Part shown: in pieces, positions 7,963-11,154 of the stretch
Layout: each line of letters begins with the position of its first letter
How positions within the stretch are numbered: the stretch's first letter is position 1
DNA from: Escherichia coli
Lineage (GTDB): Bacteria; Pseudomonadota; Gammaproteobacteria; Enterobacterales; Enterobacteriaceae
NCBI RefSeq assembly: GCF_003334305.1
Contig: NZ_QOWS01000035.1
Reading direction: 5' to 3' (one strand)
Length of the DNA: 31,024 nt
Notes under the pieces: generated by a model
The model's input: only the letters and a program-made list of their open reading frames with translations
What the model was told of the DNA's origin: nothing
Database searches by the model: none
Position numbers and translations under genes: made by a program

Positions 7963-8553
7963 TTATTGCTGAAAAATTATACCAATATTGCTCTCACCCG
8001 CCTCACGCAGGTCTGCCCTAAGGCCTTTTATCAGCTCGATATCGCGTTCTTCGCACTCAGCTAAAAGTCGGAATATTTCCCACTGAATGTCCCATTCTTG
8101 CTCTACAGCTGGGTTTTCTTTAAGCTCTTCATCGCTCATTTCGCGACCAGCCTGAGTCATTTCCAGCATCGCAACGGTCGTGATGGAGGTCTTACTCACT
8201 TCCACCGCGTGTTCGAGCGTTTCACCACTCAAACGCGAATGGACCAGTTCACTTAACGCCACGCAGGCATCGATTGCCGGATAAACGCCGTACAGATCGA
8301 AATCGTCGGCTGAAGGAATCGCTTCTTCAAATTTCTCCAGTTGGCTGTCGAAATTTACTTTTGCGTCTTTAACGGTCAGCGTTTCCCAGATGAGATCGAG
8401 AATACGACGGTAAATTTGCCCATCACCAAAACCGGTTTGCTGGCAGAACATGGCGTAATTGGGGTACATGCGTTCGCATAAGCAAGCCATGAAAGTGACA
8501 TGCTGCCAGCTTTCCAGGCGCTCCAGACGCAGATGAATTGGGTTTTGTAACAT
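7963..8553 (-). CDS. yjaG: DUF416-family protein of unknown function (YjaG-like)
   Basis: 196-aa ORF, last gene of the nudC-hemE-nfi-yjaG cluster on the same strand. Confidence 0.85.
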   Translation of the reverse strand: MLQNPIHLRLERLESWQHVTFMACLCERMYPNYAMFCQQTGFGDGQIYRRILDLIWETLTVKDAKVNFDSQLEKFEEAIPSADDFDLYGVYPAIDACVALSELVHSRLSGETLEHAVEVSKTSITTVAMLEMTQAGREMSDEELKENPAVEQEWDIQWEIFRLLAECEERDIELIKGLRADLREAGESNIGIIFQQ

Positions 8554-8595
8554 GTTGAGTTCTCAAATACGGAAATTATCCGCAGTTTACCTGAA

Positions 8596-9267
8596 TTAGG
8601 GCTGATTTGCTGTATAGCGCACGAACGCCGGACGTTCCGAGGCCACCGCGTCCGCCCAGCGCGTTGGCTCCGGCAGACGATAGCCTTTCATGCAGCGTTG
8701 TACCCACGCCAGCGCGCTGTCCACGCTGACCCGATGGCCGGTAGCGATAAACAACGGGTTACAGCGCGCTTTGCTGCGCCAGACCCAGGCCAGCTGCTCG
8801 CCTTTATCCATCAGTGGGGCCAGCGCGCCCGGTTCGCTGGAGAGCGGTTCGAATTTACCGCAGAGCCGTTTTTTCGCCACGCCGATCGTTGGCACATCCA
8901 CCATCAAACCAAAATGGCTGGCGACGCCAAGACGGCGAGGATGCGAGATCCCATGACCATCGACAAACACTAAATCCGGCTTTTGCGACAGCATCTCCCA
9001 CGCTGCCAGCAGCGCAGGATATTCGCGGAAGGAAAGAAAACCTGGAATGTAAGGCATGGTGGTGGCGATGCGGGCCACTTTATACTCCACCAGCTCAAGC
9101 GAGGGATATTTCAGCAGCACCATCGCCGCTCGCGTCACTTCTCCGCCCTGCTCAAACCCGACATCGGCTCCGGCGATCAGATCCGGTGGATCTTTATCGA
9201 GTCGATCCTCGCGGATCACAGAAGAAGCCAGTTCGATTTGTTGAGCGCGTAATGACGCGAGATCCAT
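8596..9267 (-). CDS. nfi: endonuclease V (deoxyinosine 3' endonuclease)
   Basis: Translation [16 protein letters not shown]... recognised as Nfi. ATG at 9267 has a strong SD (taaggag); the ORF-track start at 9273 is a GTG two codons upstream. Confidence 0.92.
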
Positions 9268-9276
9268 AATCACTCC

Positions 9277-10341
9277 TTAGCGGTGATATTGTTCAGACAA
9301 GCGATGCACTGCCTCCACAAACACGCCAGCATGTTCTGGCGGCACATCCTGATGAATGCCGTGACCAAGGTTAAAGACATGACCTTCGCCGTGACCGAAA
9401 CCTGCAAGTATAGTCGCTACTTCTTCTTCAATGCGGGCAGGCGGCGCGTACAGCATCGACGGATCCATATTACCCTGCAACGCGACTTTATTGCCCACAC
9501 GGCGGCGCGCATCGGCGATGTCCGTTGTCCAGTCGAGGCCCAGCGCATCGCAACCGGTTTCTGCCATCGCTTCCAGCCACTGTCCGCCGCCTTTGGTAAA
9601 CAGCGTGACTGGCACGCGGCGACCGTCGTTTTCACGCAGTAAACCATCAACAATTTTATGCATGTAATAGAGCGAGAACTGTTGATAATCGCGCCCGGTA
9701 AGCACACCGCCCCAGGTGTCGAAAATCATCACTGCCTGAGCACCGGCTTTAATCTGCGCATTCAGATACAAAGTGACGCTTTTCGCCAGTTTATCGAGCA
9801 GAGCGTGCAGCGCCTGCGGATCGGCATACATCATTTTTTTGATCACGGTGAACGCTTTGCTGCTGCCGCCTTCCACCATGTAGGTCGCCAGCGTCCACGG
9901 GCTGCCGGAAAAACCGATCAGCGGCACTTCGCCTTTCAGTTCGCGACGAATGGTACGCACCGCGTTCATCACATAACCCAGCTCATCTTCCGGGTCCGGA
10001 ATTGGCAGTTTATCGACGTCGGCTTTGCAGGTGACTGGCGAGGTAAAACGCGGACCTTCTCCGGCTTCAAAATAGAGCCCTAACCCCATCGCGTCCGGCA
10101 CGGTGAGGATATCGGAAAAGAGGATCGCCGCATCCAGCGGGTAGCGACGCAGCGGTTGCAAAGTCACTTCGCACGCCAGCTCGGCGTTTTTGCACAGCGA
10201 CATAAAATCGCCCGCCTGGGCGCGCGTGGCTTTATATTCCGGTAGATAGCGACCCGCCTGGCGCATCATCCATACTGGAGTGACATCAACGGGCTGGCGC
10301 AGCAGCGCCCGCAGATAACGATCGTTTTTAAGTTCGGTCAT
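9277..10341 (-). CDS. hemE: uroporphyrinogen decarboxylase
   Basis: 354-aa [39 protein letters not shown]..., the URO-D signature region. Confidence 0.96.
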
Positions 10342-10380
10342 TTTGGCTGTTCCTTAGTGCGTCAGGCGGTCAGTGTATCA

Positions 10381-11154
10381 TCACTCATACTCTGCCCGAC
10401 ACATCGCCACCGTATCTTCTATCAGACGGCGCGCTACGGTGCCGGGCGGCGGGAGTAACGGCAAATCGTCATAGCGATACCAGTTCGCCTCGAGCAATTC
10501 TTTCGGGTCGATCACGATGTCGCCGCTGTCATATTCCGCCATAAACGCGGTCATTAAAGACTGAGGAAACGGCCACGGCTGAGAAGTCACGTAACGCAAG
10601 TTTTTAACTTTAATTCCGCTCTCTTCCATCACTTCCCGCGCGACTGCCTGCTCGAGGGTTTCGCCCACTTCGACGAATCCGGCAAGTACTGTATGGACAC
10701 CGTTACGATGGCGGGTATGCTGGGCGAGGAGGATCGAATCATCGCGACGGATGGCAACAATAATGCAGGGGGCGATTTGCGGGTAGTAACGCTCACGGCA
10801 ATGGCTGCACAGCATCGCCCATTCGGTTTTGCTCGGATACATTTCATGCCCGCAGTAACCACAGTATTTATGCGATCGGTAAAACTCCGCCAGTTGTACG
10901 CCTCGTCCGGCCAGTTGAAACAGCCCAACATCGAGATCAATGACCTGACGTACCGACCCCATATCGTGACGCCGCTGCTGTTGTACTAACCAAACAGGTT
11001 CCCCCTGCCATTCGCCGATTTGTAGTGCGCGCTGACCCACAAGATCGAAATTTGCCGCTTCGCCATATGGCAATTCTCCCTTCGGCAACCATAATTTTTG
11101 TTCATGGCTGACGACCCACCAGCCGTGATCTAATTTTTCAATTATACGATCCAT
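10381..11154 (-). CDS. nudC: NAD-capped RNA hydrolase / NADH pyrophosphatase (Nudix)
   Basis: 257 aa with a zinc-ribbon Cys cluster (CGYCGHEM...CSHC) and Nudix box [23 protein letters not shown]. Confidence 0.95.

Follow-up and report, generated by a model that had tools for sequence, protein, structure and literature searches.

The DNA analyzed here (the window) is a stretch of 31,024 nucleotides (nt) from Escherichia coli, contig NZ_QOWS01000035.1 of assembly GCF_003334305.1, and the subject is a row of four minus-strand genes within it, nudC, hemE, nfi, and yjaG. An earlier note, made from the sequence alone, had described them as a functionally mixed operon of same-strand genes with gaps of 39, 9, and 42 nt, ending in the uncharacterized yjaG. 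The limits and identities in that description proved exact when set against open reading frames (ORFs), NCBIfam, Pfam, and RefSeq (Table 1), and the three spacers were confirmed from the ORF listing and the raw sequence (nudC-hemE, 39 nt; hemE-nfi, 9 nt; nfi-yjaG, 42 nt). The start of nfi is an ATG in RefSeq, with an alternative in-frame GTG at 9273. The order in RefSeq is rsd / nudC-hemE-nfi-yjaG-hupA-yjaH. A 4.4-kb stretch that holds the row with its flanks matches several complete E. coli chromosomes at 100% identity. Among 5426 complete genomes of the species, 5419 contain at least 80% of this stretch.

Gene order and spacing were compared across 78–80 Enterobacteriaceae species, with one genome each. 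The order nudC-hemE-nfi-yjaG is invariant in this sample, and Proteus mirabilis has the same order. The nudC-hemE spacer has a median length of 40 nt, the hemE-nfi spacer is 9 nt in 67 of 78 species, the nfi-yjaG spacer is 32–45 nt in 80 species, and the spacer between yjaG and hupA is 186 nt in 70 of 79 species. Exceptions to this spacing are few and consist of short palindromic insertions or insertions resembling enterobacterial repetitive intergenic consensus (ERIC) elements, up to 189 nt in length. The hemE-nfi spacer carries 32 nt and 156 nt insertions in two Escherichia genomes (L003 and L004, respectively), and in both cases the CTAAGGAG Shine-Dalgarno sequence (SD) is kept directly 5' of nfi. 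Insertions in the nudC-hemE spacer are ERIC-like elements of 166–189 nt, found in the Klebsiella oxytoca group and Intestinirhabdus (L025/L028/L031, L011). The arrangement is not due to chance. The mixture of functions pointed out in the earlier note also holds, with four unrelated products encoded by tightly spaced genes whose order and spacing are near-invariant in Enterobacteriaceae.

Table 1. Genes and sequence features of the row and its flanks, with positions in the window
Feature	Position	Strand	Description and basis
rsd	11249–11725	+	Divergent neighbor of nudC; ORF, RefSeq
rsd-nudC spacer	11155–11248		94 nt; conserved block upstream of nudC
nudC	10381–11154	-	NAD(+) diphosphatase / NAD-cap Nudix hydrolase, 257 amino acids (aa); ORF, NCBIfam NF001299 equivalog (421.6 bits; cutoff 158), RefSeq
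hemE	9277–10341	-	Uroporphyrinogen decarboxylase, 354 aa; ORF, TIGR01464 (455.6 bits; cutoff 303), RefSeq
TAAGGAG	9273–9279	-	hemE stop codon (9279–9277), then nfi SD GGAG (9276–9273), 5 nt before the nfi ATG
nfi	8596–9267	-	Endonuclease V (deoxyribonuclease V), 223 aa from the ATG; ORF, NF008629 (373.7 bits; cutoff 230), RefSeq
nfi-yjaG spacer	8554–8595	-	42 nt; conserved block GGTAAACTGC-N-G(C/A)TAATT (consensus of 79 unique sequences)
yjaG	7963–8553	-	DUF416 protein, 196 aa, acidic (isoelectric point [pI] 4.45), all-helical; ORF, Pfam DUF416, RefSeq
yjaG-hupA spacer	7777–7962	-	186 nt; near-invariant length and sequence in Enterobacteriaceae
GC-rich inverted repeat	7876–7912	-	TTTCGCCCCCC ... 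GGGGGGCGAAA; fold -39.5 kcal/mol, z -2.84
hupA	7504–7776	-	HU-alpha, 90 aa, next same-strand gene; NF008023 (201 bits), RefSeq
hupA intrinsic terminator	7455–7476	-	GAAGGGGTGGTTTCACCCCTTTTGTCTTT; 9-bp stem and T-run (terminator scan); first strong 3' end downstream of the cluster

Junctions and transcription of the row

On the minus strand, the hemE-nfi junction reads CAC CGC TAA GGAG TGATT ATG, and its TAAgGag consensus is conserved in Enterobacteriaceae. The SD of nfi had been placed inside the last codons of hemE; the overlap is confined to the stop codon (TAA-GGAG) and includes no hemE sense codons. Because the SD abuts the hemE stop codon, translation of nfi appears to be coupled to that of hemE, and such coupling is probable from the sequence of the junction. 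It would take place at the overlap of stop codon and SD.

The terminator scan found no convincing stem with a U-run between the four genes. Terminator-like sites were limited to weak stems of 5–6 bp inside coding sequence, which numbered 10, compared with 5.8 ± 2.4 in shuffled sequences. A search of Rfam gave no RNA element at the gathering score in the cluster region; at E ≤ 1 there was a single sub-threshold match, to the S15 leader, within hemE (18.4 bits; gathering score, 39.5; E = 0.5). The Term-seq data of Adams et al. (2021) contain no 3' end from rsd up to the yjaG-hupA spacer, and consecutive rows in that data set go from an rsd-internal 3' end directly to the yjaG-hupA spacer and hupA. 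Terminators between the genes had been named in advance, together with independent promoters, as evidence against an operon, and neither the scan nor Term-seq gives a convincing sign of a terminator there. In supplementary file 2 of the same study, a 3' end is recorded on the strand opposite hemE (MG1655 position 4198608, antisense), which suggests some antisense transcription through the cluster. Co-transcription of the four genes is plausible because their order and spacing are fixed across ~80 Enterobacteriaceae species. The promoter of nudC must lie in the rsd-nudC spacer, and most likely the row would be a single low-level housekeeping unit transcribed from there.

Two points weigh against co-transcription as the whole account. 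The block GGTAAACTGC-N-G(C/A)TAATT is conserved in at least 90% of nfi-yjaG spacer sequences, and a -10-like GATAAT/GCTAAT (GATAAT in E. coli) is conserved 20–25 nt before the yjaG ATG; the sequence of the block would fit a weak internal promoter or an element for translation initiation. Low expression, in addition, could mask 3' ends in Term-seq. The row might then be a set of neighbors and not one operon, with each gene, or at least hemE and yjaG, having its own promoter within the preceding gene or spacer and the tight spacing due to genome compaction. The conserved -10-like block favors such separate promoters, as do the ERIC-like or palindromic insertions of 156–189 nt that are tolerated in the nudC-hemE and hemE-nfi spacers of some species. 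However, a consensus scan of the minus strand from 7300 to 11900 yielded no match to the sigma-70 consensus, and the absence of Term-seq 3' ends between the genes argues against separate units. The 9-nt hemE-nfi spacer is too short for a promoter, and the SD of nfi overlaps the hemE stop codon. Internal promoters would be compatible with a long transcript as well. We therefore regard independent transcription as possible but unlikely.

For the co-transcribed unit, the question of where it ends turns on the yjaG-hupA spacer. At least 90% conservation was seen at most positions of this spacer, which exceeds that of third positions in neighboring coding sequence. The GC-rich inverted repeat within it is preceded on the sense strand by U3 and followed by A7, with no U-run. 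The 15-nt loop of the repeat, GTCTGGTCTACATTT, shows no variation among 65 unique Enterobacteriaceae sequences, whereas the G-arm varies (GGAGGG, GTGGGG, GGTAGG) without compensating changes; a shorter stem is kept in Proteus. The hairpin was considered as an intrinsic terminator in either direction and rejected, since it is followed by A7 and not a U-run, is absent from the terminator scan, and has no Term-seq 3' end. The repeat is probably a DNA-level element of a hupA control region, and the spacer as a whole is presumably a dense region of this kind rather than a terminator.

The strongest 3' end of the region is at the hupA terminator, with scores of 102752 and 14561 (Adams et al., 2021), and the same data hold a weak 3' end ~28 nt before the hupA ATG (MG1655 position 4200253). 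Since the hairpin lacks a U-run and the dominant 3' end is at the hupA terminator, transcription from yjaG may run on into hupA; there would be no convincing stop to transcription before that terminator. The placement of yjaG as terminal gene is thus not supported, as the hairpin downstream of it has no U-tract and coincides with no mapped 3' end, and a strong one occurs for the first time after hupA.

The hupA terminator lies within the first codons of the annotated yjaH (window positions 7455–7497; the RefSeq start is at ~7491 and the longest ORF begins at a GTG at 7497), and expression of yjaH must therefore rely on read-through or on a different start. Elsewhere in the window, Rfam matches at the gathering score were obtained for the sroH small RNA (17570–17730, plus strand), a thiamine pyrophosphate (TPP) riboswitch upstream of thiC (11777–11877, plus strand), and the 'P26' RNA (27066–27127, minus strand).

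Neighborhood history and protein of yjaG

At 50% identity, the relatives of YjaG fall into ~850 clusters. Those listed at full length are stand-alone proteins, ~190–205 aa long. In four other lineages hemE directly abuts yjaG, without nfi. These comprise L082 (hemE-yjaG), L083 (rsd / nudC-hemE-yjaG-hupA), L094 (luxS-nudC-hemE-yjaG), and L093, in which YjaG has 59% identity, hemE and yjaG overlap by 4 nt (ATGA), and hupA follows. In seven more distant lineages, yjaG sits amid unrelated housekeeping genes. These contexts include barA followed by yjaG and DUF2986, and marC followed by yjaG; other neighbors are pdxH, mnmH, hisF/hisA, a mepM-like gene, and a class-II aldolase-family (Aldolase_II) gene. 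Contigs resembling those of Shewanella and Marinobacter (L084, 5001–5795; L085, 5001–6353) carry small uncharacterized ORFs after yjaG, either 6 nt away or overlapping it by 1 nt. These ORFs encode DUF2986 (59 aa), an 87-aa product, and a 154-aa product and are possible lineage-specific partners.

Because hemE adjoins yjaG in the four lineages where nfi is absent, nfi is a late, Enterobacterales-specific insertion into an older nudC-hemE-yjaG(-hupA) array. The functional mixture of the row would be historical and not mechanistic, with nfi inserted between hemE and yjaG in Enterobacterales. Judged from the contexts sampled, hemE is the most persistent neighbor of yjaG, and no stable partner is apparent beyond the hemE-linked lineages. 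The absence of yjaG from this context in most relatives had been offered in the earlier note as a sign against the proposed grouping; yjaG does lie elsewhere in distant relatives, and within Enterobacterales it keeps its place. Guilt by association had been invoked to suggest a role in nucleic-acid or tetrapyrrole metabolism. Its nfi side is weak, since nfi was inserted specifically in Enterobacterales, and in the seven distant lineages yjaG has no linkage to these genes. With nfi as the newcomer and hemE and hupA as the older neighbors of yjaG, reasoning of this kind is redirected. Inferring a role for yjaG from its neighbors is itself not new and was published in 2009, when yjaG was assigned to a genomic-context module with nudC and nfi and to an integrated module with DNA-repair genes (Hu et al., 2009).

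YjaG matches Pfam DUF416 (PF04222) with E = 2.1e-83, over residues 5–192 and model positions 1–187 of 188. Its mean identity over 70 Enterobacteriaceae species is 92%, compared with 88% for Nfi and 95% for HemE, a comparison that is biased because the loci were picked by YjaG similarity. In Proteus the identities are 80% (YjaG), 60% (Nfi), and 86% (HemE). At greater distance YjaG diverges far faster than HemE and HU (41% in L083, versus 83% and 80%). The DUF416 family is uniformly acidic (pI 4.1–5.1), and YjaG has a net charge of -20, both values being computed from sequence. Near-invariant residues are R28, N32, F36, W56, P80, A93, D95, and E153, together with a C-terminal SNIGI motif.

A literature search found no functional paper on yjaG or DUF416, and apparent mentions of the latter concerned DUF4160–4169. 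The gene is non-essential, as a yjaG::cat-sacB insertion serves as a neutral linked marker, and a transposon screen in Salmonella gave a mild macrophage fitness effect. A mobile or phage-borne anti-defense gene was considered and rejected, as the plasmid and phage matches to YjaG were mislabeled chromosomes or chromosomal fragments. Also set aside was an apparent YjaG-HU fusion from an aphid (A0A6G0W136, annotated as a 'HU domain-containing protein', Aphis craccivora, 444 aa, 61% identity in a YjaG-like region), which probably stems from a contig of a bacterial symbiont whose yjaG and hupA were joined in a single eukaryotic gene model. A marginal profile match links YjaG residues 108–179 to KacA/TacA-type DUF1778 antitoxins in PDB (E = 0.0014, 0.022, and 0.026); it is a further pointer toward antitoxins but may be helical or compositional noise. 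A weak Pfam match to Ribosomal_S7 covers residues 93–150 (E = 0.02).

An AlphaFold model of YjaG built on 64 diverse sequences was all-helical and very confident, with a predicted local distance difference test (pLDDT) score of 97.1 and a predicted template modeling (pTM) score of 0.93. It has the same fold as the DUF416 crystal structures 2q9r (Shewanella baltica) and 3f7c (Marinobacter aquaeolei). Structure prediction, one of the checks suggested in the earlier note, gave an all-helical fold, which matches SsdAI and Imm-5-like proteins; the modeled all-alpha fold is superposable on SsdAI (PDB 7jtu chain B) or Imm5 members. A Foldseek search against AFDB50 gave only DUF416 among the best 50 matches. 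The Imm5 immunity family, which is mostly alpha-helical and has conserved R and D residues, has been associated with DYW-clade deaminase toxins and CdiAC, and the main text of neither study describing it mentions DUF416 (Iyer et al., 2011; Zhang et al., 2012). SsdAI is a DNA mimic, and immunity proteins of the Imm5/SsdAI type plug the nucleic-acid cleft of deaminase toxins. By analogy, YjaG would act by binding and occluding a partner protein and not as an enzyme. A conserved cellular protein would be a likelier partner than a polymorphic toxin, because yjaG is chromosomal, vertically inherited, conserved, and never found beside a toxin gene.

Several results weigh against this view of YjaG. 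A Pfam scan of YjaG at E ≤ 10 did not return Imm5, with DUF416 and two noise matches as its only hits, and a search of the DUF416 profile against PDB at E ≤ 10 did not return 7jtu_B. There were no weak YjaG matches in NCBIfam, PADLOC, or PHROGs. The modeled link to Imm5 and SsdAI is structural only, and helical bundles can converge. The physical partners reported for YjaG are limited to S4 and S13, ribosomal proteins that are basic and sticky, which were found by affinity purification-mass spectrometry (AP-MS; Hu et al., 2009). Nfi was considered as a partner in an AlphaFold model of a YjaG-(G4S)6-Nfi fusion, for which 12 paired orthologues and YjaG-only rows were used. This model had a pTM of 0.51 and a disordered linker, and docking was unsupported; as the Nfi half was only moderately modeled, the result is a weak negative.

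Taken together, the reading that explains these observations best, and that we consider fairly likely, is a co-transcribed historical housekeeping unit with coupling of hemE and nfi and no firm end before the hupA terminator, in which YjaG is a non-enzymatic acidic binder with an Imm5/SsdAI-like fold and a partner that is probably endogenous.

Candidate roles of YjaG

We weighed three more specific roles against this reading. YjaG could assist HemE in making tetrapyrroles, acting for example as its chaperone, as a regulator, or as a channeling factor. The hemE-yjaG linkage is the most persistent one, present in Enterobacterales with nfi in between and directly in the four further lineages, and the 4-nt ATGA overlap in one of these implies translational coupling. 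The conserved polar residues R28, N32, W56, D95, S188, and N189 could form a ligand pocket. Nevertheless, the seven more distant DUF416 lineages have lost the linkage, a poly-carboxylate substrate is unlikely to be bound by so strongly acidic a protein, and the yjaG mutant is viable with no heme phenotype reported. DUF416 is also not known outside part of the Gammaproteobacteria, in contrast to the near-universal HemE. A role with HemE is on balance improbable.

A second proposal treats YjaG as a domesticated ('orphan') Imm5-type immunity protein against DYW/BaDTF2 DNA deaminase toxins, forming with nfi, whose product cleaves at deaminated bases, a two-layer anti-deamination module. The fold match to SsdAI and Imm-5-like proteins is consistent with it, the DUF416 family is acidic like the DNA mimic SsdAI, and yjaG comes directly after nfi throughout Enterobacterales. 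In addition, E151-x-E153-W154 of YjaG occupies, by residue count only, a sequence position nearly equal to that of the cleft-inserting D150-x-E152-x-F154 of SsdAI. This role is quite improbable, however, because no toxin gene lies beside yjaG in 13 sampled DUF416 contexts and because yjaG is a single-copy chromosomal gene that is not mobile and keeps 92% identity across genera, unlike fast-evolving immunity genes. The older arrangement also lacks nfi at the junction, and endonuclease V acts mainly on deaminated purines and not on the uracil made by SsdA. We give an equally small chance to a wider form of the proposal, in which DUF416/YjaG would be a housekeeping offshoot of the Imm5/SsdAI fold that occludes the nucleic-acid cleft of a deaminase or a deamination-linked enzyme (an incoming BaDTF2-type toxin or an endogenous enzyme) and that was joined with nfi in Enterobacterales into a small module to prevent and repair base deamination.

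Least probable is an acidic DNA mimic that binds and modulates either HU, the product of the downstream hupA, or some other basic protein with affinity for nucleic acids. In its favor, yjaG and hupA are adjacent across a near-invariant 186-nt spacer and remain so in L083 and L093, YjaG has its charge of -20 and the basic RNA-binding AP-MS partners S4 and S13, SsdAI is a DNA-mimic precedent, and the Neisseria DNA mimic DMP12 binds HU. Against it, L094, the seven unlinked lineages, and the available L082 sequence show no hupA beside yjaG, the conservation of the spacer is accounted for by the regulation of hupA itself, S4 and S13 are common pull-down contaminants, and YjaG resembles known HU binders neither in structure nor in sequence.

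Comparison with known systems

The favored reading, a housekeeping unit that encodes an acidic binder, concerns an already known and ordinary core-genome row. It equals nudC(yjaD)-hemE-nfi-yjaG-hupA of E. coli K-12 (b3996–b4000, ~90 min) in genes, order, strand relation, and spacing, with the locus read here on the reverse strand. The hemE-nfi junction resembles that of coupled gene pairs in bacterial operons, with a TAA followed at once by GGAG, an ATG 5 nt on, and a 9-nt spacer in 67 of 78 species. Unlike in the usual coupled pairs, HemE and Nfi are functionally unrelated and have no obvious rationale for stoichiometric co-production, and coupling here is predicted from the sequence.

The DUF416 structures 2q9r and 3f7c were deposited as 'unknown function', and membership of YjaG in this family yields no mechanism. 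The fold match provides a concrete and cheap hypothesis, a cleft-plugging binder, for a family whose two crystal structures date from 2007–2008 and have since been joined by no function.

The likeness to Imm5 and SsdAI does not extend to sequence or genome context. Immunity genes of the Imm5 type adjoin a toxin gene or sit in a polyimmunity locus, whereas yjaG has only housekeeping neighbors in 13 distinct contexts. They are polymorphic, patchy, or mobile; in contrast, yjaG is a core gene (5419 of 5426 genomes), is 92% identical across genera, and is absent from genuine plasmids and phages. Unlike SsdAI and Imm5, DUF416 is restricted to Gammaproteobacteria and is a vertically inherited core gene. 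Because an adjacent toxin, polymorphism, and a patchy or mobile distribution were each looked for and each turned out otherwise, assigning YjaG to the Imm5 immunity proteins is not warranted. What can be supported from the model is a common fold, and YjaG may likewise occlude the cleft of a partner. If this is true, an immunity fold of conflict systems would have been recruited to a core cellular role.

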